The notes beneath the pieces were generated by a model that had not been told where the DNA came from, ran no database searches, and saw nothing but the letters and a program-made list of their open reading frames with translations. This document shows positions 6,501 through 64,000 of a stretch of 64,000 nucleotides of DNA, piece after piece (position 1 is the stretch's first letter; the number at the start of each line of letters is the position of its first letter). The translations under genes were made by a program, and so were the position numbers. This stretch comes from an uncultured Verrucomicrobiae bacterium (lineage in GTDB: Bacteria; Verrucomicrobiota; Verrucomicrobiia; Limisphaerales; JAFGQR01), in NCBI GenBank assembly GCA_963788655.1, contig CAWBHS010000089.1:43059-107058 (forward strand), written 5' to 3'.

Positions 6501-6516
6501 AGCTGATTTCGTCCAC

Positions 6517-6545
6517 GTAGCGCAAGCAAGGGAGCCCTGCGCTAC
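6517..6545. repeat. Single GTAG...CTAC REP-like hairpin
   Basis: gtagcgca-N13-tgcgctac just after the stop codon. Confidence 0.45.
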
Positions 6546-6665
6546 CAACACAATCAAGACGCACGGCTCGGGGCTGTAGCTCCAAAAAAATGCGGGACAT
6601 TCGGGGTAATTTATGATACGCATTACCTCGTAACCCGTTTTATTGGCGAAAGTGAAGTTCAATCT

Positions 6666-12600: not shown

Positions 12601-13920
12601 TAACCGTGACGGATCTCCAACTCGACGTGAATGACGGGATCTACACGGTGGTGGTTACCGACGCGGTGGGATCGCGCGAGAGCCATCCCGCGCTGGTGGT
12701 CTTGCTCCTGCCGCCGGCCGTTGTGGAAGGCCCCTTTCCGACCAATCAGGTCGTGGCCTCGGGCAGCACCTTCACCATCAGTCTGACGGTTCGGGGCACG
12801 TTGCCGATCGGCTATTATTGGCGCCTCGGGAACGGGTATTATAACTTCGAATCCGGAGGCGGGTACACCTATGCCGAGACGAACTCGGCGTACGTCAGCA
12901 CGAGCGTGCTGGTGATTACCAACGCGCAGAAGGCCTTACACGAGAATAAATATCGCGTGGGCATCAGCAACAGTGTTCAGACCTACCAAACTGCCAGTGC
13001 CTATGCCTATGTGACCGTCATTGACGGCCCGGCCATTACGCTGCAGCCGACCAATCAATCGGCCGCGCTGGGTGCCCCGGTTACCTTCCATGCCGGCGCG
13101 AGCGGCGAAGCGCCGTTGACGTTCCAATGGTGGCACAATGACGCTCCGATCGCCGGCGCCACCGGCACCAGTTACAGCCTCAACAGCGTGCAGGCCAGCG
13201 ACGCCGGCGCGTACACGTTTGTGGCGAGCAATCCGGCCGCCAGCGCCACGAGCCACGTGGCGTATCTGACGCTGCCCGTGGCTCCGACCATTGTCACGCA
13301 ACCGGCGGATCAAGCGGTGCATGTCTGCTCGAATGCGGTGTTCACGGTCGAAGCCAGCGGGGCGCCCTTGAGCTACCAATGGTGGTTCAATGCGACCAAT
13401 CGCCTGGCCAATGAAACCAATGCCAGCCTGGTGATCGTTCAGCCGGGCCTGGCCGATGAGGGCCGTTACTCGGTGGTGGTCAGCAATCTCTTTGGCGCGA
13501 CGCCGAGTGACGCCGCCACGTTGACCCTGCTCGACGGGGACAGCGATGGTGACGGCATGAGCGACACCTGGGAACTGGCGCACGGCTTGAATCCTTGCGA
13601 TGCGTCGGACCGCGATCTCGACCCGGACCAGGACGGGCGCACCAACTGGCAGGAATTTGTTAGCGGCACCGACCCGGGCAGCAACGCCAGCGTTCTGCGG
13701 GTGAGTTTGGTGGGTGACAGCGGGGGAGCGCGCATTCAATTCGAAGCGGCGCCCAATGTCGGGTACACGATCCAGGTACCGGACCAGCTTGACGGAAGGG
13801 CCTTGGCTGAAATTGACCGACATCGAACCCGCAGCGACTCCGCCGTCGGTGGACTTCCTGGATCCCAACGTAGCGGCCGATGGCGGACGGTTCTATCGCA
13901 TCGTCACGCCCAGGCAGTAA
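6666..13920 (+). CDS. Large secreted protein: lamin-tail domains, 2 F-type lectin domains, CotH kinase, Ig repeats, C-terminal RFYR domain (frameshift ~13775)
   Basis: Signal peptide; VISEFMANN...DWIELHN (LTD); NRDDCCGSR; GLRIRGGYSR, YYHLYLNGQYWGIY; ITxQP/YQW Ig repeats; true C-terminus ...GGRFYRIVTPRQ is in ORF 13714..13920. Confidence 0.8.
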
Positions 13921-13937
13921 TAGGCAGAACCTCTTCG

Positions 13938-14303
13938 GTTCGGAGTCCCGGCTTTAGCCGGTCAAAGCATGCATCCAAGAGCGGGCACCCAACGGTTAGG
14001 CCCCCGGTTCTGATGAATCATACAACGGCGGTTGATTAGGCACCGAGAACGCGAAGATTTTGGACGGTTCATTTCACCGCAAAGACACGGAGAGCGCAAA
14101 GAATCTGGTTCGGAATCTTTGCGCCCTTCGTGTCTTTGCGGTGAGTCAGGCGGCCTACTTGCAGTTCTGACGGTCGGAGTCGATATTCGCGCTGCTTTGG
14201 GTTGGAGCTCTGCTGTTGCAAGTGGCGACGAGATTTTCTGCGCGCGGCACCAACCTACCACGATTTAGCGCGAACGCCTTGCCGGCTGAAGCCGACTCCA
14301 AAC
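13938..14303. repeat. GGAG-type REP pair enclosing a second palindrome
   Basis: gttcggagtcccggctttagccgg (13938) and its inverted copy ccggctgaagccgactccaaac (14282-14303). Confidence 0.55.
14074..14144. repeat. Palindrome with 29-bp arms
   Basis: tcaccgcaaagacacggagagcgcaaaga versus reverse complement of 14116-14144, 27/29 identical. Confidence 0.8.
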
Positions 14304-35643: not shown

Positions 35644-35760
35644 TTGGGACAGCCGTCTCGGCTGTCTCGAATGATCGGCAACCTGCCGCCAGTCAGCGAA
35701 CGTTCAGCAAAGTATTGGAAGGCCTTGGGTCATTCGGGACCGGCGGGACGCCGGTCCTAC
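35644..35760. repeat. GTAG REPIN, family of 53148; right arm overlaps the adjacent stop codon
   Basis: gggacagccgtctcggctgtctcgaatga ... tcattcgggaccggcgggacgccggtcctac. Confidence 0.7.
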
Positions 35761-38700
35761 GGGGTTGGGAGCACGCGCACTCGGTAGAAACGTGCATCCG
35801 CAGTGGGCGCGGGATCGGTGAGCGTGGTAACGCCACCGCTGGCAGCGTTGGTCACTACGGAGGTCCAACTTGTTGGAGGAATTCCATCGGCGTAATCCAG
35901 AGCGTATGGGACGCCGTTGGTGCTCAGGAAAGAAAGGCCAAAAGCATTCGGGGAGTGGGAAATCACCATGAGGGCGGCCACCAGGTTGGTGGTTGCTCCC
36001 ACACTGTTCGACACCACCACCGAGTAGGCGCCGACATTGGTCGTTTGCACATTGGGGAGGAGCAACTCGCTACCGGTGGCGTCCGGGATGTCTGCGTTCC
36101 CGAACCGCCATTGCACGTCGGGCGTTGGGTAACCCACGACTTCCACATCCAAGCGAGCATCGCGCCCGGCGACGGATACCAGGTTCAGCGGTTGGTTCGT
36201 GATGCCCGGGCTGAACCGGACACTGAGAGTGGCGGCGGTGCTGTTCGTTGCTCCCGATTCATCGGTGAGCGTGACGCGATAAAGTCCGGCAGCTTCCGGC
36301 TGAGCGTTCGTCACTGAATACGTGCTGTTGGTGGCTCCGGCAATGGCCATGCCGTCGGTGCTCCATTGATAGGTCAACGGCGCGGGACTGCTAACGGTCA
36401 GGTTGAACGTGGCGGTATCGCCTTGATCGACTTCCACGTTGCTCAACGGCGTAAAAACGCTTAGCACCGCCGGATCGCTGGTTTCGCGCTCCCCGAGATC
36501 ATTCCAGGTAACGACCTCGTATTCGCCAGCGTCCGTTAATTTGAGATTGTTAATGCTTAGCGAGCTGAGGTTGGCACCGGGCAGATTGGCGCCGTTGTGC
36601 ATCCACTGGTAACTCAGAATTCCGGTGGCTTTGACGCCGACGGAGAATACGGCCCGGCCGGCGCGCGCGAGGATCTGGCTTGGCGGCTGATCGGTGATGC
36701 GCAGCGGCGAGTTCACGGTCAGGCTGGCCGACAAACTGGTATCCGAACCGTAAGCATTGGACACTTCCACGCGGTAGGCTCCCTCGTTGGTTTCATACGC
36801 GACCGGAATCAAGTAGGTGTCGCCGGTGGCTCCGGAAATGAGATTGCCTTTGAAGAACCACTGGTATGTAAAGGGCGTGTCGCCGGTGGCAGTGACCGAG
36901 AACATAACCGGTTCGCCTTCGAACACGAGTTGGCTGAGCGGATCCTGGGTGATGGTCGGCGGCAGGTGGACGGTCAATTGCACACTGGCACTGTCCACCG
37001 AACCGGCGGCGTTGGATACGGTGACGCGATAGCTGCCCGCGTTGGTCGTTTGCGCATTGGCAATGACCAGCGTATTGCCGGTGGCGCCCGCCATGGCGGT
37101 ACCGCCGAAATACCACTGGAATCCGGGGTCGGGTGATCCGGTGGCTTCGATCTGGAACGTTGCGGTTTCACCCTGGATGACTGAAAGGTTGGTCGGCGGC
37201 ACGGTGATCACGGGCGCTTCGAGGATGATCAAGCTCACCGGCGCGCTGGTCACCGCTCCCAGGCTGTTGGTGATCACGACGGTGTACATTCCGGCGTTGA
37301 TCTTCTGCGCGTTGATGAGGGTGAGGGAAGTGTTGGTTTGCTCAGGCACGATCAAGCCCTCGAAGTACCATTGATAACGGAGCGGAGCATCACCGGCCGC
37401 GGCGACAACGAACTCCGCCGTCGCGCCAGGATAGACCATGCGGTTGGTCGGTTGCACAGTAATCACCGGTGGTTGCGGGACCGTCACGGTCAAGGTGGCT
37501 TCCTGGCTGGTGGCTCGCTCGCTGTCACTGCTGGAAATGACCACCCGATAGCCGCCGGCGTCGCTCGCGCTTACCTCGACCAGGGTCAAATTACTGGAGG
37601 TGGCTCCCGGCAAAGTCACTCCATTGCGTTGCCATTCATACGTCAGGTTGGCGGAACTCTCAACCACCACACTAAACACCACCGTGCTGCCCTGGGTGAC
37701 GGACTGGCTGACCGGGTTGGTCAAAATCTTGAGGGGCACTTGAACGGTCAACGTGGCCACTTCACTGGTCGCAGCGCCGAACTGGTTGCCCACGACCACT
37801 TGGTATTCGCCCTCTTGGGCGAGTTGCACGTTGCTGCGCGTAAGACTGTTGGTGGTGGTTCCGGTTTGCTCGTTCGTCACCGTCTGAACGATATTGGTCG
37901 CTTGGAAATACCAACGGTAGGTCACCGGAACATCGCTTTCCGCAGTCACATAAAACGTGGCGTTACTGCTCCGGAGCACAGTCTGGTTGGTGGCGTCCAG
38001 TGTGATAACCGGGGGCAACGCACTTGCGCCGTATTCGAAGGCGCCGATGTCGCACCGCCCTCCGAACGGATACGGTCGGGTCACGCCGCGTTGATCGGTC
38101 GGCAGACAAAAGTTGGGATCGCCACTGTCGATGGCCGGACTGCCATCCTGCGGTTCCATGGTTTCCGTAGGTCCGCCGTAATCATCCAAAGTGTAAAGCA
38201 GGGGGTCAATGCTGTAGCTGCTGCCCGGACCCGTAAAGGGCGGGGTGATATCGGAATTGATATTATAACCGGCGTCGGTTACCGGCCCATAGAAATTTCC
38301 GCTGCTGACCCAGTAGGCAACGATCGTGTTTTTCAGGATCACGGCACTGCCCGCATTGCCGATGTTGTCGCCGCGCCAAGCGCCGTAGGCACCGTTTTGC
38401 CCCGGAAGAGATCCCCCGCCGCCGGCCAAACCGTTGGTGCCGGGAATGGTATTGCCGGAGGAAAAAGTGCAATTAGTGATCAGCGCCTGGCCTTGATTGT
38501 AGTAGTTGCCGCCCCAGGCACTACCACCGTTGCCGCCGTTGCCACCTTGTTGCGATCCGTAACCGCCGTTGCCGCCATTGCCTCCCGCTACGCTGTTCGT
38601 GTAAAAGGTGCAATTCAGCACGCGGTTCAGGCCATAGTTGGCAATCCCGCCCCCAAACGCATCCGCGCCGGCCGGACCGGCGCCGCCGGTGCCAGCCACG

Positions 38701-39635
38701 CCGCCACCATCACCCGAGTCGCCGCTTTGGACGTGGTTGTCGGTAAGCGTGGAGGCGGTGACCTCGCATTCACCCAGGCTGTAAATCGCTGCCCCGGCAC
38801 CGACAGCTCCAGCGCCTCCCTGGCCGAGGAAACTGGGGTTGCTGCCCACGCCGTTCGTGCCACCCGCACCACCCGCGCCCCCGACCGCACGATTCAGTTT
38901 AAAAGTAGATTCGGTGACGGACAGCTTGCTCTGGTTATAGATGACGCCGCCCTTCCCGATTGCCCCGCTGCCGCCGGCGCCGCCATTGCCGCCGAAAACA
39001 CTGCCATCCCCACCGTTGCCTCCTCCGCCGCCCGCACCGCCGGTCGCACTGTTGCCGACAAAGAGGCATCGGGCCGCAGTCGTCGTCGCGGCATTGAACA
39101 GAACGCCGCCCGACGCAGGCGCCCCGCCTCCTCCTGAGCCGCCCGGTTTGCCCTGCAATTCGCCGTCGGTGCCGTCGATTCCCGCGGTACCATCCGCGCC
39201 CAGGGCGATATTGTTGGTCAATACGCAATCCTCCAGCCCGAGCAGCCCTTGGTTGTAAATGGCGCCGCCCGCGGTGCTGCGGCCATCGGCCAACGTCAGA
39301 TCTTGAAGGGTGAACTGAATTCCCGGATTGACGGTGAAGAGACGGACGCCATTGGTCGATTCCGGGTCGTTGTCATAACCACCGCTGAGGATTACCTCGT
39401 AGCCAGCCCCGTTCAGAACCGTGTTGGTGCGGACTGTGATGGTTTGCGAAAGCGTGATGGTGCCGCTGTTGGTGAACGTGACCGTGCCGCCATTGGTCAT
39501 CGCATTGAGGAGCGCGGTTTGGGTCATGTTGGTCACGACGCCATCGGCGTATGCGGGGCAGGACAATTCAATCCAAGCCGGAAATACTCCAGCAATAAGA
39601 CACACACGGGCCAGTTGTTGTAGTCGCACCTTCAT
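35757..39635 (-). CDS. Secreted Gly-rich beta-helix / choice-of-anchor Q protein with about 8 Ig repeats and C-terminal RFYR domain
   Basis: Signal peptide; GGAIYN repeats; SPAIDSG...DQRG...CDIGAFE; PxIT..P/YQW repeats; ends DARFYRVRVLPTP. Confidence 0.85.
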   Translation of the reverse strand: MKVRLQQLARVCLIAGVFPAWIELSCPAYADGVVTNMTQTALLNAMTNGGTVTFTNSGTITLSQTITVRTNTVLNGAGYEVILSGGYDNDPESTNGVRLFTVNPGIQFTLQDLTLADGRSTAGGAIYNQGLLGLEDCVLTNNIALGADGTAGIDGTDGELQGKPGGSGGGGAPASGGVLFNAATTTAARCLFVGNSATGGAGGGGGNGGDGSVFGGNGGAGGSGAIGKGGVIYNQSKLSVTESTFKLNRAVGGAGGAGGTNGVGSNPSFLGQGGAGAVGAGAAIYSLGECEVTASTLTDNHVQSGDSGDGGGVAGTGGAGPAGADAFGGGIANYGLNRVLNCTFYTNSVAGGNGGNGGYGSQQGGNGGNGGSAWGGNYYNQGQALITNCTFSSGNTIPGTNGLAGGGGSLPGQNGAYGAWRGDNIGNAGSAVILKNTIVAYWVSSGNFYGPVTDAGYNINSDITPPFTGPGSSYSIDPLLYTLDDYGGPTETMEPQDGSPAIDSGDPNFCLPTDQRGVTRPYPFGGRCDIGAFEYGASALPPVITLDATNQTVLRSSNATFYVTAESDVPVTYRWYFQATNIVQTVTNEQTGTTTNSLTRSNVQLAQEGEYQVVVGNQFGAATSEVATLTVQVPLKILTNPVSQSVTQGSTVVFSVVVESSANLTYEWQRNGVTLPGATSSNLTLVEVSASDAGGYRVVISSSDSERATSQEATLTVTVPQPPVITVQPTNRMVYPGATAEFVVAAAGDAPLRYQWYFEGLIVPEQTNTSLTLINAQKINAGMYTVVITNSLGAVTSAPVSLIILEAPVITVPPTNLSVIQGETATFQIEATGSPDPGFQWYFGGTAMAGATGNTLVIANAQTTNAGSYRVTVSNAAGSVDSASVQLTVHLPPTITQDPLSQLVFEGEPVMFSVTATGDTPFTYQWFFKGNLISGATGDTYLIPVAYETNEGAYRVEVSNAYGSDTSLSASLTVNSPLRITDQPPSQILARAGRAVFSVGVKATGILSYQWMHNGANLPGANLSSLSINNLKLTDAGEYEVVTWNDLGERETSDPAVLSVFTPLSNVEVDQGDTATFNLTVSSPAPLTYQWSTDGMAIAGATNSTYSVTNAQPEAAGLYRVTLTDESGATNSTAATLSVRFSPGITNQPLNLVSVAGRDARLDVEVVGYPTPDVQWRFGNADIPDATGSELLLPNVQTTNVGAYSVVVSNSVGATTNLVAALMVISHSPNAFGLSFLSTNGVPYALDYADGIPPTSWTSVVTNAASGGVTTLTDPAPTADARFYRVRVLPTP

Positions 39636-39667
39636 GATTGTCCAAGTCTGGCCGAGCTGGCACCAGC

Positions 39668-42279
39668 TCAGAAGCCTTCGCGTTTGTATAATTCCTTCGC
39701 CGACTTCTGTTGGTTCTTCCGCGCATCGTCGGTAAAGTCGCGCTCCGCTTTGCTGATGCCCGGCAATTTGGCTTTTTCTTCCATGGCCACCAAGGCGGCG
39801 TCCTCCGGGGTGTTCAGCACTTTGGGCCGGATGAGAATCATCAACTCGACCCGGTTGCCGGACTTGGTGGTGCTGCGGAAGAGCGAGCCCAGCAGCGGGA
39901 TGTCCTTGAGGAACGGCACGCCGGAATTCGAGCTGCGCTTTTCGGTGCGCATGAAGCCGCCCAGAATCACTGTCTCGCCGTCGCGCACCGACACCTTGGC
40001 ATTGGCCGATCGCTCGACGGTCGTGGGCACGTCATTGCCGTCGATCTTGACCGGCTCACCGACATTATCGACGCGCTGGTCGATGTCCATGACCACCAGG
40101 CCGTCCGGGTTGATCAACGGTAGCACGTTCAGCTCGATGCCGATGCGCAATTGGGCGATCTGCGATTGGGATGCCGCCGTAGCCGCCGTAGCCGGCCGGT
40201 GACATAAGGCCGCGTCTCACCGACGAAGATGCGGCACGGCACGGCGTGCGAGGTTTGCACCCGCGGGCGGGACAGAACCTTGACATCGCCCACGCTGGCA
40301 ATCGCCTGAATGGCCAGGTCGAGGTCGTTGCGGTACGCCGCGAAGTAGGAAAATCCGCTCTGCAAACCGGGGATCGAGGGCACCCCGTTGCTGCTTGAGC
40401 CGGTCCGGCCCAGCCAGGACCAGGGCTCGGCCGCGTTTTGTCCGCTGTTGTAGCCGCCGACGCCCGCCCACTTGCCGGCGACTTCCGGCCGCTGCAAGGC
40501 GCTCACGCCGAAACTGAAGGTGTCGTTGAGGGAGACTTCCAGGACCACCGCTTCGATGAGCACCTGGGCGAGCACCACGTCGAGCTTGGAGACAATTTCC
40601 TGGATCATTTCGATGTCCTCCTCCGAGGCGAAAATCAACAGCGAATTGGTGCGTTCGTCGGCAATGATTTTCGTTTTGCCCAGCACCACAATATCCTCGT
40701 CGGTGGCCTTGTTGACGATTTGCTGGAGACGCTGCTGGAAGGAGGCTTTCGGGGTGACCACATCCAGTGAGGCATTGTCGGCACCGGACAACGGGACAAC
40801 GGCTTCCGAACGAGGATAAACCCCTCCGCTATACCCGCCCCCATAGCTGCTGCCGTAACGGCTGCTCGAGCCGCCGTAAGAGGAACCGTAGCCGCTGCCG
40901 CCGGCGCTGTAGCCGGGCAGTCCGCCGCCCCCGCCCCCGCCCGGCGTGCTGAACCGTTGCGAGCTGACGCTTTGACCGCCAACGGAAGTCACGGCGCCGC
41001 CGCCCTCCGTGAGGCTGCTCAACACTTGGGCGATGTCCGCGGCCAAGGCGTATTTGATGGGGATAACCACCGGTCTAACGTCGCGCGGGATGTACACGTC
41101 AATTTCCCGGATCAGTTCCACCATGCGTTTGATGTTGATGGCGTAGTCGCGCAGGACCAACGTTTGCGTGCTCTTGATCGCCATGATGCTGTCGGGCGCC
41201 TTGGACGCAAAGGGCTTGAGGGCATCGACAATGTCGCCAGGATCCGTGTATTTCAATTTGGCGACGTAGCAGATGTATTGCTTGCCTTCCGGCAAATCCT
41301 CCGGATCGGCGTCGTAGAAGGTCATACCGGCCTGGGGAGCTTCGGCGGTGGGCAGCGCCTGCACAAACTTGTCGCCCATGGGCACCATGGTAACCCCATT
41401 CAGGGCCAGGATACTATCCAAAGCCTGGATGGCTTCTTTGCGGGTCAAGTCGGTTTGCGTATATAGGGTGATGGGCTGCTGCGGTAACGAGGACGGCCGC
41501 AGAATGGTCCGTCCGGTCAGATCCTGATACACGACGAGCACCTGGCTCAAGTCAAGTTCTTCAAACTTGATCTGGCCGGCGGGAATGATCTGGTTCTCGG
41601 CCGCTTCCCCTTCGGCTCCGCCCTCGTCCGGTTTGGCGGTCGCTGTTGCCGACGGCAGATTGGTCCGCAAGGACGGAGGAAGTCCGGCGGGCACGCCGGG
41701 CGGCCGGGCACCGGGTACTGGCGGAATAGCGGCGGTGGCTCCCGGAGCGGGGGGCACCGGGATGGCCGTGGGTCCGGGTCGTCGTACCGGCGGGTTGCGC
41801 ACGGGATTGGGCGCCGCCGGATTGGTGGTGGGCGTCGGCAGACCCGGCCGGGCGGAAGGGGTGGGTAATTTCGGAGCCACCGCAGGCGGGATCGTCGGTG
41901 GGGCGGCGCTGGCGGTCGGCGCGTTGCTGGTGCGCAATGGCACCGGAGCCATGGCGGCGCGCGGTTCGACTCGGAGGAAACGATCCGGCAGCGAGGAATG
42001 ATTCGTGGCCAAACCCGCCTCGACGATGATGGTGCCCAAGGGATCCGGCACCGTGGTGACCGTGGTCTCCGGTTGGGTGATTCCGGCAAGGTCCGGCTGG
42101 GGCAGTCCATCCATGCGGGCGTACGCCCGGTCCATTGCTTGGCGAATTCTCGCCTGCTGGTTCGGCAGCGCTTCGGCGGGGGAAGCCGTGGGACTCGGTT
42201 GCGGCGCTTGCGCCCAGACCGCCCAGGCGCAGCCAATGGTCAATACGATTTGGAGAACAGTTTTCACGGCAAGATTCAA
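39668..42279 (-). CDS. gspD: Type II secretion secretin with Pro-rich N-terminus (frameshift ~40200)
   Basis: IIADERTNSLLI, QVLIEAVVLEV, VLSRPRV, DGETVILGG, GVPFLKDIPLLGSLF, ELMILIRP. Confidence 0.88.
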
Positions 42280-42407
42280 TTTGATGATTGGGTGGGTACG
42301 TTGAGCAAACGAGGGAGCGCCCGCGGCGGTCGTCCGGCGACTACCGTATCCAAGCGGACGCAGCGGTCGGTGGACAGGTTCGCGATGGGGGACTCAATAT
42401 TCACGGT

Positions 42408-48777: not shown

Positions 48778-51700
48778 TTACGGAACCATTACGCGGAAGA
48801 TTCGCAGCGGCCGGACGGCCGGCACTTGCCACGGCGCGCTGGCGTCGGGATTGGCATACCAGGGTCCCAGAATGTCCTCCGCCTCTTCCAGGATGCCGTA
48901 CGGCCAGGAGAGCAGCAGGCTGGAGCCTTGCGGCGGCGCGTCGAAGTTAAGACGCACCATCAACGCGTCCGGCGCGACCAGTTCCGCGTCGTCGCCGCTT
49001 ACGATGGCGGTGAGTTCGGATTCGTCGAGCATCCGGTCGTAGATGCGGAAGTCGTCGAGGCTGCCGTTGTACGTGCGCCAGTAACCATCATGCGACCGGC
49101 CGATTTCGATGGATTGTTTGACCGGCCAGATCCAGGCGCTGGAATTGCCTTGAGACGTGTCCAGCACGCCGTCGAGGTAGATCGAAATCGATCCGGCCGC
49201 CGACTGATCATACACGTAGGCGACATGGTGCCAGTCGTTGTCATTGACCGTGTTGGCCGTGACAAACGAATTGCCGCCACCGTTGTTCTGCACAAACAGG
49301 GTGCCATCGTCTTTCATGACAATGACATCCCCTTCCGAAGTGCGACGGTCAAAGATGATGGAGCCTTCGCTGCCGCTGGTCATGTCGTTCCCCGCGGTGC
49401 GCATCCAGAACGCGATGGTGCCTTGAGCCCCATCAAAGTCCGGATGAGCCGGCAGGACGATCTGATCGCCTTCGGGGGCCACAAACTGCGCGACCCCCGA
49501 GCGGGTGGTGGAGATGTTGTCGGTTTCGGAATCCAGCCAGGCGGTGCCGTTATCAAGGCCGTCGTGCGGCAGACCGACCGGTTTCGAATCCAGGACGGCC
49601 GGGCCTTCTGTCGCCGTCAACGAGAGCGCCAGGGTTTCGCCGGACCCGTTCAGGTAGAGGTTGCCAATCGCGGCCAGGCTCAGCGCCTGGTTGTAAATGG
49701 CCACGTCATCGATGATGCCATTGAACAGGCGCGTGCCCGCCGAGGTGTCTTCGCCGATGTAAGTAGTGCCGTTGAATTCCTCGATGTCGTTGGCGACGAT
49801 ACGAACCGCCGACTGGAGTATGCCATCAGTGCCTAGATAGAGGGTACCGTTGGTGGGCGTGACGACCAGGGCCACGAAACTCCACTGGTTCGTTGGCACG
49901 ATCAGCTCGGAGTTCCAACCCCAGGTGGCATTGGCGTTGTTCCAGGTGAAACGCAATTCGTTGCCGTCACCGTAATGCACGCCGGCCACCGTGCTGCCCG
50001 CCCGGCTGAACACGATTCCGCGCCAGCCGCCTTGATCGCCATCGGGATAAATCCAACCGGCGATGGTGACGGTGTTGGTGTAGAGGTTCAGCGCCGGCAG
50101 GGCCACGCGGGAGCCGGCCACGCCGGTCAATTGAACGGCCGTGTTGTCAGCTTCGAAGCCGCCGAATTGCGGTCCCGGGGCGCCCGGCACGGCGCCAGCA
50201 TCGTAGGTGCCATTGTGGCCGCCCCAATAATCGTAGGCGGTGGTGGCGCCAACGGCCTCATCCAACGGCCAAAAGCCTACCGGATCTTGCGTCAGCACTT
50301 CGCTCGCGTAACCGTTCTCCGCCGGCACCAGCACGGTAAGCAGGGCTGGAATCGAATCATCGAAGCCGCTGTCGTTCTCGATGCCCACAAAATATTCGCC
50401 CGCGTCCGGACCCGTCACATTGGCAATGGTGAGCGTCGCGCTGTTGGCACCGGAGATACTACCATTGTCGGTGAGCGGGTTGTTGTCGTGGTACCATTGG
50501 TAATTTATCGGCAGCGTGCCCACCGCCGTCACTTGGAAGGAAACGCTCTGGCCGGCGTAGCGGGTTTGACTGGTCGGCTGATAGATAATCGTCGCGCCCA
50601 CCTCGCCCGCGCCCTGCGCGTAGATGGCGTTAATGGTCTCCGCCGAGAGGGCATGGTCGAAGACCGCGACTTCGTCGATGGCGCCAGAGAAGTAGTTGCC
50701 AGTGGCGTCCAGCACGGCGGCGCCGATGCGGAAGGGCGACGGGGAACTGCCGTAATTGTTGGTCGTGTTCAGGGCGCTTGCGATGGGACTGCCATTTCGG
50801 TAGAGCGTGAGTTGAGTGCCATCGCCCACCGCGGCCAGGAAATACCATTGGCCGGCGCTGATGAGCGAGGTGGGATCGAAAGCCACCAAACCCGTCGCCG
50901 GCGTCCAGATGCCGAGGTCGGTTGCGGTATGGAAGCCAAATTCGGCCACGTCATTTTGGCCAAACAAGCCGACGCGTGCGCTGTCGCCCGACATCTGCGG
51001 CATGACCGATGGATTGAACCAGCCCATGATGGTGAACTGCGTGCGGTCGTTTATGAGGCTGGCCGAGGTGGAGGTGCTGGCGCTGGTATTGGTGCCGTCG
51101 TAACTGGCGGCGTTGTTGTCGCTCTCGAAGCCGGGCGAAAGCGGCGGGCGCGGTCCGGCCACGTAGGTCACTTGGTCATTGGTGGCGTCGTTGCCGCCGA
51201 AATAATCGTAGGCGGTCAGCGCGCTGTCCGTTTCATTGAGCCGCCAGTAGGCCAGCGGTTGATTGGTAATGATGGTATCCTCGAAACTGCCCGCCGTGAC
51301 CGCTAACAACGTAAGCCCAACCGTGGACGAGTTGGTCCAACCGACCTGGTTCGTCACGTAAAGCGTATAGTTGCCGGCATCGGCCGTTTGCAGGTTGGTC
51401 AGCGTCAGGGTCACATTCGTAGCATCCGTGATGGGGGTACCGTCGTGTTCCCATTGGAACTGGAACGGTGCGGTGCCCTCGATGATCGGCGCAAAGACCG
51501 CGGTGCCGCTGCGGTACCGGGTGGCGGGCGCGATGTCCTGGGTCAGCAGCGGTGGGGCGTCCTCCACCGTGATGGTGTTCGTGATGCTCAGGACCGAACC
51601 GTTGTCATTCGAAACCTGCACGTAATAATCGCCGGAATCGGTCGGCACGGCATTGGACAAAACCAGCGTCGCCTCGGTGGCGTTTTCAACCGGATCAACG

Positions 51701-52678
51701 TCCTTGAACCATTGATACGAAAGCGGTAACGGCGCGCCGCCGGTGGCGGTTACACTCATCGACACGGTAGTCCCGGTGAAAACGCTGCTGGCGGGCGAGG
51801 GCGAGGGCTGGGCGGTGATCACCGGTGTGATTTGGACCACGTCGCCGTAGGCGGTGCCCAGGCGGAAGGCGTCCAATTCGCCACTGCTGGTCGGACCGTT
51901 CACATAGGCCAGGAGGTGCGTGTACGTGTTGGCGTCGTCAAAGGAGTAGCTCACATCCCAAACGACGTCCGCTTCGTTCGGGGGCAGTGTCTGGTAACCG
52001 GTGCGGGTGGCATTGAAGAAGGCGGCCTGCACCGTGTCGTCGCCCGTGGCGCTGGTGGTGATCTTGATCAGGATGAGGTTGCGGTCGTCATTGTTCACCT
52101 CGGTGGGACTGTAGGCATTGGCGCCGTAAGGGCCCTGGCCGACGTTCAATGTGCCGACGGCGACAACCAACTTACGGTTGGCGGGCGGATTAAAACTGGT
52201 GTTGTTCCAAGTGGCGCCCACCGAAATGAACTGGCTGGCAGGATCGCTGCCGGTGGCCAGGCCAAAACCGATGGCGTCGTCATTGCGGCGACGCATGTTG
52301 TAGGTGATGTAATACGTTCCGTCGGCCGCAAAGTCGATTTGGCTGCCCGCGGCGAGTTGGCGGGTGCCCCACCAACCGACATCCCACTGCCCGGAACTGG
52401 GCGGACCCCACCAGAGGCCACCGTTGCCGTTGATTAGGACGGGCATCTCATTGGTGATGTTGGGATCGACGTTGAAGTTGTCGGCCAGATTGATGTTGCC
52501 GATTTAGGTTGGCGGCCCAGGTGGTGCTGGGCTCGAAGCCCACGGAGGTGGAACTGTCGCCGGCGCCATCGAGGGAAGGCGTCAGCCCGTCGAACAATTC
52601 GCGAACCAGCAAGGCCGCATTGGCTTGGATCAAACCGGCCGCAGCCAGGGTGGCTGCCAGGATCAGACGTTTTTTCAT
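48778..52678 (-). CDS. Secreted protein with three LamG domains, Ig repeats and C-terminal W...IFRV domain (frameshift ~52500)
   Basis: Signal MKKRLILAATLAAAG; PLAYWRLNE, FSGAIDEVAVF, FNGIIDDVAIY, YNGSLDDFRIY. Confidence 0.85.
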
Positions 52679-57421: not shown

Positions 57422-57438
57422 TGGGTGATTGAATAAAT

Positions 57439-57924
57439 ATGCGCTGTCCCAAGTGTGGGTGTCTGGAAGATAAGGTGATTGATTCGCGCGCGTCGCGAGA
57501 GGGCTCGGCCATCCGCCGACGCCGCGAATGCGTGGCATGCGAACACCGTTACACGACTTACGAGCAAATCGAACGGGCGCGTCTTATGGTGCTCAAACGC
57601 GACGGACGCACGGAAGAATTCTCGAAGGACAAGTTGTTGAACGGCATTGAGAAGGCCTGTCAAAAACGCCCCGTCAGCCAGGAACAGATTGATAACTTGG
57701 TGGAAGCGATCGTGAACGATCTCGCTCAGCAATTGGAGCGGGAAGTGCCCTGGTCCGCCATTGGCTTGCGGGTGATGGAGGGATTGCGCGACCTGGATGC
57801 CGTGGCTTATGTGCGCTACGCGAGCATTTACCGGCGGTTCGATGAAGCCACGGATTTTGTGCAAGAAGTCAAGAAACTGGAGAAACCTTATGATCGACTT
57901 ACGGCCCGATTGCCTGGTATTTAA
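57439..57924 (+). CDS. nrdR: Transcriptional repressor NrdR
   Basis: MRCPKC...VIDSR...IRRRREC, ATP cone, VAYVRYASIY. Confidence 0.95.
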   Translation: MRCPKCGCLEDKVIDSRASREGSAIRRRRECVACEHRYTTYEQIERARLMVLKRDGRTEEFSKDKLLNGIEKACQKRPVSQEQIDNLVEAIVNDLAQQLEREVPWSAIGLRVMEGLRDLDAVAYVRYASIYRRFDEATDFVQEVKKLEKPYDRLTARLPGI

Positions 57925-58447
57925 GGATGCGGAAGGTGAAGGCGCTCCGAAGTCCGTCGAGCACATCACGCTGGAGTTGATCGGCGAGTCGGCACCGTTC
58001 CTCGACGAAACCATTCTCAAGAACGCGGCTCACGGCGTGCTGCACTACTTCAAGGAAGATCTGGGACAGGAAACCGTGTCTGGCAACGAGTTTGCGCAGG
58101 CGCTGGAGAAGACCTTGAAGGGACTGGGCTTCGAAGTCACCGCCGGCTGCGCCGAAGCGAACGCTCCGTCGATTGCGGAAGCGGATTTGCGAGGATTGGC
58201 CGGCGAGGGGAACGACGGGTTGGAACTGATGTTCTTTCCCCGGTTGCGCAGTGAATTGCACCAGCAACTCCAGCAGGCACCCCAGGTTTTGCGATTTAAG
58301 GGCTTGCGCGGGTGCGTCAAGCAACTGGTCGGGGCCAAACGTTGGAGTGGCCGCTGCCAGGGGCTTCACGACCAGATTGTCGAATATCTGCGCACTTGTC
58401 TGGTGGCAGAAAAGGCCGGAAAGTCCTGCGCCATGGTTGTCCAATAG
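57890..58447 (+). CDS. Conserved hypothetical protein
   Basis: Overlaps nrdR; AHGVLHYFK, ELMFF, GLRGCVKQL. Confidence 0.65.
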   Translation: MIDLRPDCLVFKDAEGEGAPKSVEHITLELIGESAPFLDETILKNAAHGVLHYFKEDLGQETVSGNEFAQALEKTLKGLGFEVTAGCAEANAPSIAEADLRGLAGEGNDGLELMFFPRLRSELHQQLQQAPQVLRFKGLRGCVKQLVGAKRWSGRCQGLHDQIVEYLRTCLVAEKAGKSCAMVVQ

Positions 58448-58503
58448 AACTTGCTACCCACCAAAACCAAACCACCGAAATCTGCCATCCCCCCATCCAG
58501 GCT

Positions 58504-58848
58504 ATGAGTAAAACTCTATTCGAGAAGATCATCACCCGCGAAATGGCGGGCACGATTGTCTATGAAGACGATAAAGTCGTGGCCTTTCGCGACATTGTGC
58601 CCCAGGCGCCCGTTCATATATTGATCGTGCCTCGCAAACCGATTTCACGGATCGCCGAAGCCAAGCCCGAAGACCACCCGCTGATCGGTCACTTGCTGTT
58701 GAAAGCCGCGGAAGTGGCCGCGAAGGAAGGTTTGGCGGACAAGGGGTATCGCTTGGTCATCAACAACGGGCCGCACGGCGGCGAAGCCGTGCCGCACCTG
58801 CACGTCCACATCCTCGGGGGCCGCCAAATGAGTTGGCCCCCCGGTTAA
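58504..58848 (+). CDS. hinT: HIT family nucleotide hydrolase
   Basis: AFRDIVPQAPVHILIVP, VPHLHVHILGGR. Confidence 0.92.
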   Translation: MSKTLFEKIITREMAGTIVYEDDKVVAFRDIVPQAPVHILIVPRKPISRIAEAKPEDHPLIGHLLLKAAEVAAKEGLADKGYRLVINNGPHGGEAVPHLHVHILGGRQMSWPPG

Positions 58849-58903
58849 AACCGCTCCGCAGACAAATTACAGTTCCAAACCACAGAGGACGCTCACTGCT
58901 CCA

Positions 58904-58931
58904 TCGGGACAGGCAGGACGCCCCGTCCAAC
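58904..58931. repeat. Single degenerate REP arm (53148 family) between convergent genes
   Basis: tcgggacaggcaggacgccccgtccaac. Confidence 0.5.
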
Positions 58932-58950
58932 CGCACAAAAAATATCCTCC

Positions 58951-61900
58951 TCACTCCGTCGCATGAATCGGGTTGCCCGCCGGATCAATCAGGGTCGGCG
59001 TCACGAAGATCACCAAGGTTTTTCGCTGCACCTCCTGAGTCTGCTGGCCGGAGCCGGTCCGTGGCTTGCGCACGGTTTCGACCGTGCCCGGTGAAAGCAC
59101 CAAGGTCTGCCCATCTCGCAGGGCCGCGCTGGCGACGACCTGCCGCACGCGAATCTGCGGCAAAGGCGGTGCGGGAAGATTGGTGCCCGTCAGCGCCTGA
59201 ATCCGCTCCGAGGACTCGAAGTCATAGCCCATGAATTCGCGAATGGTGGGAATGACGGTCATTTGAATCGTCCGATTGTCCACGGCGACGTGCGGCACGA
59301 TATCCAGCTTGGGTCCAAATTCCAGGGGCTTCGAAATTGGCAGGGGCGAGTTTCCGGGCGTCTTCGAATGCCTGCAATCCCGTCACAACGTATCGGACAT
59401 TGGAGATTTTGATCTCCGCTTGACGCCCGCTGACGGTGGTAACGCGTGGCGCCGAGAGCAAGTCCACTCCCCGCCGCTCTTCCAGAGCCTTCAGCACCGT
59501 GCGAAATTGGTCGGCAGCCAGGATGCCGAAGAACCCGGCAGGAGGCAAATTTGAGGATTGGACACTATCGGGCCGTAAGGCCGGCACGATGTCGGGAGTT
59601 ATCGGTGTGGGTTTTAACGCGCCAGGCTTCAGCCCCAGTATCTTAAGGAAATCCTTGCCGCCCTCTTCGTCTTCTTTCACCTCGGCGAACTTCACTTCAA
59701 TCGTCACTTGCGGTGATGACGTATTGATGACCTGAAGGGCTTGTTCGATGGCGTCCAAATCCTTCAGCGTCGCACGCACCATCAGCATGCCGAGCTGATC
59801 GTTGAAATAGATGTTCTTGGGCGGCGACAAATCCACGCCCATGCCCGCCATGAACGCGCGGAATTTGGGCAGGACGGTGGGGTTGGCATTGGTGTCGGTC
59901 ATGTAGTCAATGCCGCCGCCGGTAGGGGATGCGCCGGTTCGTACCCTGCCAGATATCGGATTATTCGTGGATGGCATAATCGTACTCTGGCCCTCGGAAT
60001 TCCTCGAGTGCGCGCATCAGATTGTTGACATCCAACCTGAAGAAGCGGTTGTACAGGGGGCTTGGTTTGACGGCTGGGTTTGCGATCTCCTTCTCATTCT
60101 TCTTGGCGGACTCGTCGTCGCTTTTGTTTCCCGACTTGTTCTCACGTCGCATGTTGGATCGCTGGTACTGCGTTTCCATGACGAGATCCAGATACGCAAC
60201 CGCGCTGCGATTCGACGGATCACGCTGGAGAGCCTCCCGCAGTTTGCTTTCGGCTTCGACGTATCTGCCGGCTTCGTAAAGCAGTTTCCCGTCGCGAACC
60301 AATCCTTCGAGGGGGACTTCTTGATCAATGGTGATCTGGGGCGGTTTTGATGCGGGCGTAATACTGGCCAATAATTTTTCAAGTGCTGGCCGGAGCTCCT
60401 TCACTCCTCGGTATCGCCCAACAAGCTTTTGATCCGGGCCAATCAGCAACAAGTCAGGGGTGCTGCTATAATCGCATTCGCTTTGAAAGAACCTCAGGAG
60501 TGAATTCGCATTGGCCTGCGGCCAGTCCAGCCCGGCCTCGCGGATCCATTCCTGCGCTTGCTCATCGGTTCCAAAGTAAAGGCCCAGCCAAGCCATTCGC
60601 GAGCCCGGCTGCAATTCTTCGTGCAGACGTTGTAATTCCTTGAGCGTTCGCCGATCCGCCGAGTAGTCGCTTGCATACCACAAAACCAGCAACACGTTTG
60701 TTCCGGCGTGGTCCTTGAGGTTGCATATCCGGCCATCCTGGTTGGTGACCGAAAAGGGCGCCACCACATCCCCAACCTTCAGTTGCTTGCGTAACTTCAC
60801 TTCGATTGTCCCCAGATCCAACGGGGTGTCGCCTTCGCTGATGTTGGTCGTGACGGTAAAGGGCACCGGGCCACTGCTGCCAATCGCCGGCGTCATGGGG
60901 CCGGGTTTATCCTGCGGGGCGACGAACAATTCGTAGTCACCCGGTTCCACCAGTGGCAGCACAAAGGAACCATCCTCCAGCGCATGTCCCATCGCCACTT
61001 TTCGATTCGAGCGATCTTTGGTGATGGCATGAACGTCGGCATAAGCCCAATGGACCGGCCGAGTGGCGTTCGTGGCGACGGCTCGTCCCGTCACCACGCG
61101 GCTTTGCTTGCGAACCTCGACCGTTGTGACCTTACCGCCTCCACCTGCCCCAACGTCATCTCGGCCAGTTGAAATCCAACGGTATTGGTTCCATCGAGGT
61201 CCAACGCTTGCCCGCTCCAGGCACAGGTATAGGCCAGACACACTTGCCAGGGCCCCGCACTGACATCGTGCAACACAAAACGGCCGGCTTCATCAGTTCG
61301 TGTCGCGGGATACCCTAACCTTGCACCCGACCCCCAAGAACGGCGTAGAGCCACCACTTGATTTGTCCACGGTCGCCCACCCAGCCACAGTGTGCCCTGC
61401 ACCGTGCCGGGAGCCTGGAGGTTGATACGGAATTCATTGGTCAACGTCTGCATTGCCACTTCCGCGAACTGTCCTTCATGCTGGACCATTACCCACTCGA
61501 CCTCGGGATTGGGATAGACAAAGGTCCGGCCTTGTTCATCCGTGAATGCGGGCAAACTGAGCGTGCCGCCGCGAAACCGAAAGCGGACTTCGGCGCCAGG
61601 CACGGGCTTGCCCTCAAAAAGCACGGTTCCCCAGAAGCGGCCGTCGGCAACTGCGAGATTCGGCGTGCTCGGATGCGCCGGTGCGGTAGCCTCCATCGCC
61701 GAGTCTGTGTTGGAATCGGGTGCAGTTTCTACCCCGTTTGTTGCCGTTGGTGAATTAACGCCATTCGACAACCGATTGACCACGCCAAGTATCAACTCCG
61801 CGTCATGCTCTCGACCCGCATTAATCAGCAAGTTGGTGTAGCCTCCCCAGATTTCACGGTTGGCTGGACCGAGGGCGAAGGCTTGCTGGTAGGCCAGTTC

Positions 61901-64000
61901 CGCTTCATCCATCAGGCGCCGGTCAACTCGGCCAGCAGTGTTCGTGGCGCGCCACAGATAGACATTGGCCGTTGCCGCGCGCAAACCGCACAACGTGCGC
62001 TGGGCTGAATTGTCTTTGAGGTAATCGCGATCACCGTTGAAATGGGAGAATTCCTGCCGCCCATAGACCTGCTCCACAAACTTGCACAATTCCGATACCG
62101 GCTGCAATGCCACTACCGCGTTCCCGATGAATGGCCGGGTGAAGCTCTGCCAGAATTCATGGTCCTGCTTGATCACTTCATCCGACAGTATCGCCAACGG
62201 GCGATGCCGGAGTTTCATGATCGGTCCCTGCGGTTCTAATCGCGAATACATCCACTCCATCGGCCAGCGGCCGTCCACGTAGAAATCTACAGTCGGATTG
62301 AGATCGAACAGGCGCTTGGTCAACAGGGCGTTGACCTCCATAACCGCCACCTGTCCACTGACCTGAAATCGATTGCCGATGATTCTTGCTTCCTCCCCTG
62401 GCTTGAGGCGATCCTCGCGAAATCGCTTTTGCAGGTCTTGAAGGAAATCGCCGAACGTGCGTTGGTGGTCATCCATCGTCAACAGGACAAGCCGATTCGT
62501 CAGCGTTTGCCGCAGAAACTCCAGGTAGGAATTGTCCGCCAGCATATCATAGGCGACGAACCACCCGGGGCTGGGTTCGGTTGCATGCAACAAGCGAAAC
62601 ACGGTATGTTCTTGAGCGCCACAGCTCAGATACACGCTGTTCGATGGAATGGAACTGAAGAGGGCATCGGCCAGTTGGCAGGCAAGCCGGGGATTCCAGG
62701 GCCGGATACCTTCACAAGCAGCGTAAGTTTTGCGGACGTTTTCAAACGATGCTTGGATTGGGTCGGGCAGAGCAGCGAACGCCGACTCGTTCTCCGCATC
62801 GGTTAGTTGTTGGAAACAATTGGACATCATGCTCCAGTTATTGCTCGACGCTGCGTCGAAGAAGTTCGTGACCACGGGCATCATCTCGAATGTGTTCGTT
62901 CCAACTTTGGATAGAAATGCATTTCGTCTGGCGGTTACGAACTGCGTTTTCGCATGCCGAATCCTTGCTGTGGCGTCCTCAAGCGCACTGGCCGTTTTCT
63001 CGGAAATGGCATCTGTCAATCCGACTGCCGCCGCCACTGCCAAGAGACAGAGTCCCAGTGTTGACCAGCGGGGAGTTACTTTGAATCCCGCGATCATCCC
63101 GATACGCCGTTTCATCTGGTTCTTGTCCTCCAGAATGCCCACCAATCCCGGCAGCACTGACGGACGAGCGAAGCCTTCCAGTAGCTTGACAATGGTGTGG
63201 CCGTAGGCGCGGTGTTCACCGGCGTCGGCCACCGACAGGGCCAGTGCGTCGCAAGCCACTTCGCGGTCGGCGCGCATCCGAGCGAAGGCCAACCAGACCA
63301 GCGGATTAAACCAGTGAAATATCTGGAGCGCGGTGCAGAGCCAGTTGACGGCAATGTCGCGGCGTTTCACGTGCGCCAGTTCGTGGAGAAAGACGTGACG
63401 CAGTTCGGCGGAACTGGAATCCTGGAGCAAACCTTCCGGCAGCAACAGCCAGGGTTGTCGCAGGCCGTAGAGGGCGGGACTGGCGACCAACTTGGTCTCG
63501 ACCACCACGAGTGGCAGGCGAACGTCAAGCGAGTTGCGACATTCGTCGAGCAGGGCCAACACCGCCGGATCCTCCACCGGCGAATGGCGGCGCAGGCGGC
63601 GGGTTAACCGCCAGCTCACCCAAGCCACGCGCCCGGCCAGCAGCAAAACGCCGGCTAACCAGAGCAGCGGCAGTGCAGCCTGCAGTTTCAGCCAGCCCAC
63701 GGCGAGAAGGTCGCGCAGGCGTTCGGAGAATGGTTTGAGTGGAGGTTTAAGTGGCTGCGTAGTAGCGAACACTTCCGTTTTTTCGCCCGTGGTTGCGGTC
63801 GGCGCCAGCCAGTCCGTTGCGAAATTGTCCGAATCTAGGGTTCGAGGTGATGGTGGTTGGACCATCGACGCAACTGGCTGCTCTCGTCCGGAGGCGAGGT
63901 TGAAGATGCTCCACGCGCTTTGCGGCGATACGGGCAGTGCCAGCCGCGCCACCACCAACAACCACAAGGCGTACCGCCAACGCGGCGCCAACCGTTTGCG
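58951..64000 (-). CDS. Probable single multi-domain protein: M56/BlaR1 peptidase, DUF2723-C-like/TPR, carboxypeptidase-regulatory-like repeats, CxxC-less redoxin, TPR, secretin (5'-partial, three frameshifts)
   Basis: HELAHVKRRD, HWFNPLVW, REVACD; VSGQVAVM; LKVGDVVAPF; VDLLSAPRVTTVSGRQA, LVIFVTPTLID; frames join at ~61136, ~59990 and ~59340. Confidence 0.7.

Follow-up and report, generated by a model that had tools for sequence, protein, structure and literature searches.

A BlaR1-type M56 protease joined to a secretin module in Verrucomicrobiota, the candidate sensor of a BlaI-type switch

In Gram-positive bacteria, proteases of the BlaR1 type are known to sense antibiotics. Secretins are known as the passive gates of pili and secretion systems in the outer membrane. 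The DNA analyzed here is a 64,000-nucleotide stretch (the window) of contig CAWBHS010000089.1 of an uncultured Verrucomicrobiae bacterium (assembly GCA_963788655.1; positions 43,059 to 107,058), and its last 5 kb, positions 58951–64000, carry on the minus strand a gene that appears to join these two kinds of protein. A model-made reading of the letters (the original prediction) had proposed that one chain here links a BlaR1-type (peptidase M56) protease to a secretin, and that it might act as a signal transducer across the envelope. We describe the gene and its relatives, the condition of the assembly in which it was found, and the reading of the protein that we consider most probable.

The fusion gene and its relatives

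Four open reading frames (ORFs) that overlap or abut one another carry the pieces of the gene (Table 1). The original prediction had joined them through single-base shifts into more than 1650 amino acids (aa), and this was confirmed: the junctions lie where it had placed them, and when the frames are read through with an X at each break the product has 1684 residues and zero stops. Homology is unbroken across junction 1 in blastp matches to M56-CarboxypepD_reg-redoxin proteins (including P0094, P0099, and P0092), and across junctions 2 and 3 in a MAFFT alignment with P0002 and other homologs, in which the corrected reading at junction 3, LPISKPLEFGP, pairs with KPISEPIEFGP of P0002. A further shift at the stop codon of the last frame, which would place the true gene end at 58893, is possible; it is suggested, weakly, by some 20 residues, as the tail EEDIFCAVGRGVLPVPMEQ and the stop behind it resemble the C-terminal tail of the homologs (EEIPFRDRGVPPQ...). 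The end of the window is also the end of the contig (C89). Because the contig ends inside the gene, the gene start (about 36 N-terminal residues, window residue 1 aligning to approximately residue 37 of P0002) and any blaI gene are off the assembly. Based on these alignments, the four ORFs are almost certainly a single gene of approximately 1740 codons, which the assembly shows in four (possibly five) frames through indel errors.

M56-secretin fusions are a large, real family in Verrucomicrobiota, whose members occur as uninterrupted ORFs in well-assembled genomes. When the piece of the window protein that holds the N3-type secretin ring domain was searched against 5.8 billion proteins, there were 90 matches, 18 of which had both PF05569 (peptidase M56) and PF00263 (secretin); the names of their sources place the matches in Verrucomicrobia subdivision 3/Limisphaerales. 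The best match was P0002, a protein of 916 aa with 58% identity. In 10 of 40 relatives of the same order (G004, G005, G006, G008, G011, G016, G021, G031, G033, and G037), M56 and the module lie in one open frame on one contig, as determined by cross-matching two result lists by hand. Long frames from eight further genomes (961–1822 aa) were all M56 plus Secretin by Pfam; one sits on a contig of 2.32 Mb in a genome assembled into 10 contigs. The middle parts of these intact fusions vary, and include ExbD, SecDF_P1_head, SLBB, Secretin_N, and tetratricopeptide repeat (TPR) domains. An exhaustive search with P0002 of 1.84 billion cluster representatives (50%-identity clusters) matched both halves of the protein in 91 of the 150 best clusters. 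With continuous homology along the window gene and intact fusions elsewhere, the proposal that one chain joins a BlaR1/M56 protease to a secretin module is well supported.

To place the module of the window protein, we cut 142 N3 plus secretin modules from 190 proteins (the other 48 were dropped for less than 70% model coverage) and built a tree with FastTree. In this tree the window module belongs to a 14-member clade (local support, 98%) comprising 12 M56-fused modules without the C-terminal motif typical of secretins (VPxLGDIPxLGxLF), one M56-fused module with it, and one short stand-alone protein that is probably truncated. The genome's own stand-alone secretin, which also bears a TPR, lies in a separate clade of 16 stand-alone proteins, and the window module is 58% identical to P0002 versus 42–46% to this secretin. 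Fused proteins are also among the nearest relatives of the M56 end (P0104, 62%; P0103, 55%; G075, 51%). Based on the clade and on the fused nearest relatives at both ends, the module therefore appears to be an old M56-associated lineage and no recent copy of the cell's own secretin, which also argues against a chimeric join. Nor is it a relative of the GspD at 39668 of the window, with which the original prediction had compared it: it belongs to the TPR-bearing, PilM-linked (type IV pilus-like) secretin lineage. The stand-alone TPR-secretin of this genome has 947 aa (L001:5547–8390, minus strand, contig C64), and a PilM_2 gene lies four genes upstream of its own. Its N0-like and N3 domains are separated by roughly 100 residues of low complexity that are rich in Gly and Tyr, with GGYGGGG repeats.

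Table 1. Pieces of the fusion gene, frame junctions, and predicted domains (window coordinates; residues are those of the read-through).
Feature	Position	Strand	Details
ORF 1	61091–64000	−	969 aa; 5' end open
ORF 2	59961–61241	−	426 aa
ORF 3	59222–59977	−	251 aa
ORF 4	58951–59298	−	115 aa
Junction 1	61134–61136	−	One base missing (−1 frame switch); QVEA, then KVTTVEV
Junction 2	59990	−	One base extra (+1 switch); in a variable linker, exact base not fixed by homology
Junction 3	59344	−	One base extra (+1 switch) in a CCCC run
Possible fourth shift, at the stop codon	58893–58953	−	Shift at 58951–58953; next frame reads EEDIFCAVGRGVLPVPMEQ, then a stop
Peptidase M56 (BlaR1-type) domain	63092–64000	−	PF05569, residues 1–303, profile 25–296 of 296; 5' end cut
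HELAH zinc-binding motif	63371–63385	−	Residues 206–210; regular expression
Last hydrophobic (putative transmembrane) segment	63005–63061	−	Residues 314–332; Kyte-Doolittle, 19-residue window
Domain X (predicted periplasmic; TMEM260_2/TPR-like)	61721–62998	−	Residues 335–760
CarboxypepD_reg/DUF4198/DUF6795-like beta-sandwich repeats	60777–61696	−	Weak Pfam matches; holds junction 1
Thioredoxin-fold (AhpC/TSA-like) domain	60342–60776	−	PF00578, 27.2 bits (cut-off 26)
TPR unit	60192–60314	−	TPR_2, TPR_19, and TPR_14 matches; K/E-rich linker next
N3-type secretin ring domain	59708–60062	−	PLYNRFFRLD ... LQVINTSSPQ; inserted loop holds junction 2; aligned with P0002 and the stand-alone secretin
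Secretin domain	58954–59707	−	PF00263; without VPxLGDIPxLGxLF; shorter than stand-alone secretins between N3 and the Pfam core

The neighbors of the gene are a HIT-family gene and NrdR, and there is no pilus or secretion gene cluster around the locus. Elsewhere in the window are three uninterrupted ORFs whose products look like giant surface or secreted proteins. These have 2510 aa (6507–14036, plus strand; Lamin-tail, F5/8 type C, CotH kinase-like, Ig, and TSP3 repeats), 1424 aa (35760–40031, minus strand; seven or more Ig_3 domains and PKD, directly downstream of the GspD gene), and 1241 aa (48781–52503, minus strand; Ig and three Laminin_G_3 domains).

Frame switches and stops in the assembly

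The assembly of this genome (G000) has 8.96 Mb in 115 contigs and is rated 5.6% contaminated and 86% complete. We surveyed it for frame switches by aligning ORFs of at least 250 codons from 20 contigs of a genome of the same genus (G001) onto it, retaining 71 non-overlapping, ortholog-like genes (104 kb) whose best high-scoring segment pair had at least 60% identity. Frame switches, 21 in total, were found in 15 of the 71 genes (approximately 0.2 per kb), and 28 in-frame stops (17 TGA, 5 TAG, and 6 TAA) in 14 of them. There was no genome-wide enrichment of homopolymers at the switch sites, the mean longest run being 3.19 vs. 3.13. An alternative genetic code with recoded stop codons was considered and rejected, based on the fact that the 28 stops align to many different residues.

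Since this pattern of switches and stops alone fits either mass gene decay or a poor consensus, rpoB and rpoC were taken as the deciding test. The rpoB gene (C45:51013–54792) is spread across two frames, and rpoC (C45:54960–58956) across at least four, with an internal TGA. Because these essential genes cannot be pseudogenes in a living cell, we consider such lesions in this assembly to be assembly errors. The GspD gene of the window is split as well, with a switch near 40132–40216: its N0 and Secretin_N domains lie in an ORF of 754 codons (40132–42393, minus strand) and its Secretin core (profile 43–168) in one of 182 codons (39671–40216, minus strand). Likewise, the other two blaI-M56 cassettes of the genome (C112:3476–4804 and C100:85892–88775) are interrupted by frame switches, and clusters of three to four shifts occur in other conserved genes on contigs C58 and C95. 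The frame shifts thus belong to a genome-wide assembly defect and are no property of the fusion gene in particular. We therefore hold it very probable that the gene is intact in the organism, as one gene.

One public run accounts for a small share (0.05) of the stretch, as three short contigs at 58976–59017, 59398–59548, and 59726–59876. A second, partial copy of rpoC (profile 908–1146) is present at C104:54632–55347 and could represent a second strain or contamination. Separately, the estimate of 86% completeness may itself have been lowered by assembly errors. The window copy represents its family poorly, since the contig end truncates it and cuts it off from its repressor, and assembly errors interrupt it. 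Coming from an error-ridden assembly, it is also unsuited as a reference sequence; intact homologs are preferable for experiments.

The predicted protein

Pfam, motif, and hydrophobicity scans agree with the order of parts given in the original prediction, that is, M56 with HELAH, a transmembrane segment, a large periplasmic region, a redoxin, TPR, N3, and secretin (Table 1). The match to PF05569 is strong (8.2e-52; 176.6–179.7 bits against a cut-off of 31). A Kyte-Doolittle scan found hydrophobic segments only at residues 98–126 and 314–332, and HELAH sits between them. As no hydrophobic segment follows residue 332, the remaining approximately 1350 residues are predicted to be periplasmic, following the topology of BlaR1. 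In a family alignment of 73 M56-secretin proteins (A1), at least 90% of the sequences have H248, E249, and H252, and all of them have E289, D293, and R341; E247 and D251 of the window protein (residues counted by hand) align with E289 and D293. The first part of the profile made from these 73 proteins matches BlaR1 (8exs and 8exp) at about 2e-20 over residues 4–323. Because HELAH, E247, and D251 are at invariant or nearly invariant positions, and because the family profile matches BlaR1 8exs at that level, the protease is likely active.

The region that follows is a chain of domains with different relatives. Domain X has relatives of two kinds, namely hypothetical Verrucomicrobial proteins that stand alone and the TMEM260_2/TPR region of glycosyltransferases of the DUF2723 type. 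Stretches homologous to it occur in proteins of 1100–1570 aa in nearly all relatives, one such protein of this genome is TMEM260-like with TPR, and the M56 gene on contig C100 (85892–88775) bears the same domain X as the window gene; an Atlas feature search on this domain gave a lead only. The beta-sandwich repeats are collinear, at 25–27% identity, with M56-CarboxypepD_reg-redoxin proteins (P0092–P0099) and with 1400-aa proteins of G011 and G021. The thioredoxin fold lacks CxxC: WYASDYSA of the window protein lies opposite WATWCGPC of P0094, related M56 proteins keep WCGPC, and the only Cys in read-through residues 1100–1260 is not at the CxxC site. Proteins that are collinear with both the sandwich and the thioredoxin fold (the 1400-aa proteins of G011 and G021, and P0094–P0098) stop right after the fold. 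In the window protein the fold is followed, within one uninterrupted frame of 426 codons, by the TPR unit, which is 51% identical to the N-terminal TPR of the genome's stand-alone secretin on C64, and by the K/E-rich linker. This exact chain of domains is so far unique to the window.

ORF 3 has no Pfam matches, and PF00263 scores 25.5 bits on the last piece alone, below the cut-off of 27.5, and 33.2 bits when the neighboring matches in frame are counted. In P0002, the closest intact homolog, PF00263 scores 51.2 bits but covers only profile positions 1–120 of 169. The last part of family profile A1 matches solved secretins across the whole secretin domain, the best being BfpB (9u5s) at 6e-22, followed by GspD, PilQ, and pIV at 1e-9 to 1e-17, and also RcpA. 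In this alignment, BfpB is a compact domain with no canonical motif. BfpB has been solved as a 17-mer, which shows the double barrel and a central gate and lacks an S domain (PMC12531336).

The original prediction had noted that the window module lacks the GVPxLxDIPLLGxLF segment found in the GspD of the same window. This is correct: in a search of all six frames of 58800–64000 there was no copy of this motif or of the related VPxLGDIPxLGxLF, and GspD carries it as GVPFLKDIPLLGSLF in its 182-codon ORF. A regular expression finds the motif at the C-terminus in only 12 of 91 fused representatives, and by this criterion the motif switches between present and absent 17 times on the module tree. 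We compared column-wise conservation in 49 stand-alone modules with that in 69 fused modules without the motif, the window's among them. Both groups share a conserved N3 domain and conserved strand segments (TT.SGRQA, GP.LDV.P, DGQT.VL, and IFVTPT.IDPAGN). Conservation is restricted to the stand-alone proteins at the barrel start (LGFDWYLGN), in the next 45–60 residues, and in the segment KDKVPLLGDLPL.GRLFRSE, these columns being gapped or variable in the fused group. Based on the profile match over the whole domain and on the constrained strands of the 69 fused proteins, the secretin domain appears complete apart from the motif. The lip of amphipathic helices is regarded as a key determinant of membrane insertion (PMC7545093).

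A separate observation concerns motif copies at another position. In P0001 (L020:1846–4911, G005), P0015, P0044, and several other fusions whose C-terminal secretin domain is without the motif (here in the form VPxLGDLPxxGxxF), one to three copies of it lie between the last transmembrane helix and an N0-like domain. P0001 has three of these upstream copies and the window protein has zero.

A putative BlaI-type switch and comparison with known systems

The pairing with a BlaI-type repressor is seen in relatives of the window gene. By tblastn, a BlaI-family gene lies directly upstream at 11 of 14 distinct foreign M56 loci. At M56-secretin loci the count is seven of nine (L020, L053, L055, L056, L058, L059, and L063); blaI was not found at the other two (L057 and L062), and no other neighbor is conserved across these nine loci. 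The blaI promoters of six of them (L020, L055, L056, L058, L059, and L063) contain palindromes that overlap the TTGACA box and are of two types, TTTACA-N2-TGTAAA (G005 and G093) and ACTACC-N2-GGTAGT (G016, G129, and G067, with an imperfect version in G061). Searched genome-wide, the perfect palindrome is present only at its own cassette in G005, G093, G016, G129, and G067, and the single match to the G061 operator falls inside a coding ORF. With up to one mismatch, G005 still has one site, at its own cassette (control, 5), and G093 has five versus two for the control, one of which adjoins another M56 cassette. Since the operator occurs only at its own cassette, the cassette is very likely self-regulated in these relatives. 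Perfect copies of the two operator patterns of the relatives were not found in G000.

We consider it probable (roughly 0.6) that the window holds a real single gene for the sensor-protease of a BlaI-type switch whose sensor is derived from a secretin. In such a switch, a BlaR1-type zinc protease would be anchored in the inner membrane, with approximately 1350 periplasmic residues replacing the penicillin-binding sensor and with the N3 and secretin parts of a TPR-bearing, type IV pilus-like secretin grafted onto the protease. By analogy with BlaR1/BlaI, and given the blaI genes and operators of the relatives, the protein would be the sensor-protease of a self-regulated, two-gene system. The secretin module may oligomerize into a ring, or join one, at or under the outer membrane; its state would be relayed along the chain to the M56 domain, which would cleave the BlaI repressor and so derepress the cassette. 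The N-terminus of a secretin points to the inner membrane, and because of this orientation a tether from that end is geometrically natural. Within this general reading, an outer-membrane ring and a sensor or decoy confined to the periplasm are about equally likely. The fullest version, in which one chain runs from the inner-membrane protease to an outer-membrane secretin ring and uses the assembly or gating state of the ring to cleave its own BlaI, so that the fusion is the sensor and the only output, is in our estimation rather unlikely.

Several observations weigh against a sensor-protease of this kind. None of the junctions is covered by the public reads, and the continuous ORF is thus inferred and not seen. 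The module lacks both the motif and the stretch of 45–60 residues between N3 and the core that are strongly conserved in stand-alone secretins, and the fused modules are on longer branches of the tree. The former fits a changed role of the fused module, and the latter a relaxed or changed function, under which the fused modules may or may not insert into the outer membrane. Neither an intact protein with redoxin and secretin nor a domain X protein of more than 1697 aa was found, although the searches have little power for proteins of such length. An ortholog is also absent from G001, the genome of the same genus; its synteny with the window covers 57438–58469 only and, being limited to that interval, is uninformative on gain or loss at the locus. 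An unpaired blaI was not found in G000, where PF03965 gave three matches, each beside another M56-like gene. In the relatives, exact and one-mismatch searches found no BlaI target beyond the cassette, and a sensor without a separate output is unexplained; one possibility is that the fusion protein itself is the output of the switch.

The lack of the motif and of the conserved stretch in the 69 fused proteins, together with the 17 changes of motif state, is what would be expected if the secretin-derived module formed no pore and were instead a periplasmic sensor or decoy, binding the cell's own type IV pilus-like secretin, its partners, or peptidoglycan, with M56 reporting the contact. The upstream motif copies of some motif-less fusions point the same way, as they look like a peptide kept for binding and not for barrel building. 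However, BfpB, the best PDB match, is an outer-membrane secretin that in the profile alignment is likewise compact and without the canonical motif. The fused proteins also show clear constraint on the strand segments of the core, a fold that is known only from oligomeric barrels. We regard a module without a pore as possible, if on the doubtful side.

Two other explanations concern the gene itself. Were the frame shifts real mutations in a decaying accessory gene, one might expect what is seen in several respects: three to four lesions in 5 kb are many relative to the genome average, ORFs of 2510, 1424, and 1241 aa are intact in the same window, G001 lacks the gene, and the switch sites of the genome are not enriched in homopolymers. 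A true pseudogene is nonetheless very unlikely, as rpoB and rpoC are broken in the same manner, conserved genes on C58 and C95 have similar clusters of shifts, and the corrected frame runs for 1684 codons without a stop and retains 50–60% identity to homologs after every shift. Highly improbable, too, is an assembly chimera in which an M56-beta-sandwich-redoxin gene was joined, near the contig end, to the TPR-N3-secretin tail of another gene. The position of the locus less than 5 kb from a contig end, the contamination rating of the genome, the C-terminal redoxin of relatives (G011, G021, and P0094–P0098), and the failure of searches to find a redoxin plus secretin protein are consistent with such a join, but the transition from redoxin to TPR lies inside one uninterrupted frame and shows no marked break in composition, the nearest relatives of both gene ends are among M56-secretin fusions, and the middle domains of intact fusions, which reach 1822 aa, are highly variable.

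A widespread family of such fusions, mostly accompanied by a BlaI repressor of its own, points to regulated proteolysis as a means by which Verrucomicrobia monitor or build a structure that spans the envelope. If this is right, the repressor, operator, and protease would offer a direct handle on how the state of an outer-membrane machine is sensed. Were a single chain to reach a secretin ring, it would constitute a self-adjusting trans-envelope channel or an envelope probe, a control logic that we did not find described for secretins or BlaR1 proteins in the literature searched; full-text literature searches found no paper on M56-secretin fusions.

The closest characterized system is BlaR1/BlaI, which with MecR1/MecI is known from Staphylococcus aureus (BlaR1 structures 8EXP–8EXT). 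Like BlaR1, the window protein has a membrane zinc protease of the M56 family in which a Glu follows downstream of HExxH, it shares with BlaR1 and MecR1 a sensor part that is C-terminal to the last transmembrane helix, and its relatives have the repressor gene directly upstream and a palindromic operator at their own promoter. Unlike BlaR1, it has no penicillin-binding sensor, its approximately 1350 periplasmic residues ending in a secretin domain; the operator search found no resistance gene or other repressor target in the relatives; and as the organism is Gram-negative, the sensor would be in the periplasm. With PilQ, GspD, and BfpB it shares the order of an N3 ring domain and then a secretin domain, which in the family profile matches solved secretins along its full length, and the closest stand-alone relatives of the module are TPR-bearing secretins of 900–960 aa, one of which is that of this genome near PilM_2. 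Here, however, an inner-membrane protease stands in front of the module where those proteins have a signal peptide, the window copy is without an N0 domain, VPxLGDIPxLGxLF, and the conserved stretch after N3, and the gene lies outside a pilus or secretion gene cluster.

The general idea of a chain that starts at an inner-membrane anchor, extends to a machine in the outer membrane, and links the state of that machine to an inner-membrane event is also found in FecA-FecR-FecI, TonB, and VirB10. The output of FecR is an anti-sigma/sigma pair and that of VirB10 is channel gating, the protein families differ from that of the window protein, and to our knowledge none of these works as a protease on a repressor of the BlaI type. 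Among published architectures, the nearest analog is the M56-TonB_C fusion of Bacteroides (TonB1/BT0813 and TonB10/BT3898), in which M56 is likewise joined to a module that normally contacts an outer-membrane machine, although that module is a TonB C-terminal domain and not a secretin. Some Verrucomicrobial fusions combine ExbD, M56, and secretin in one protein (P0081; L057 of G136).

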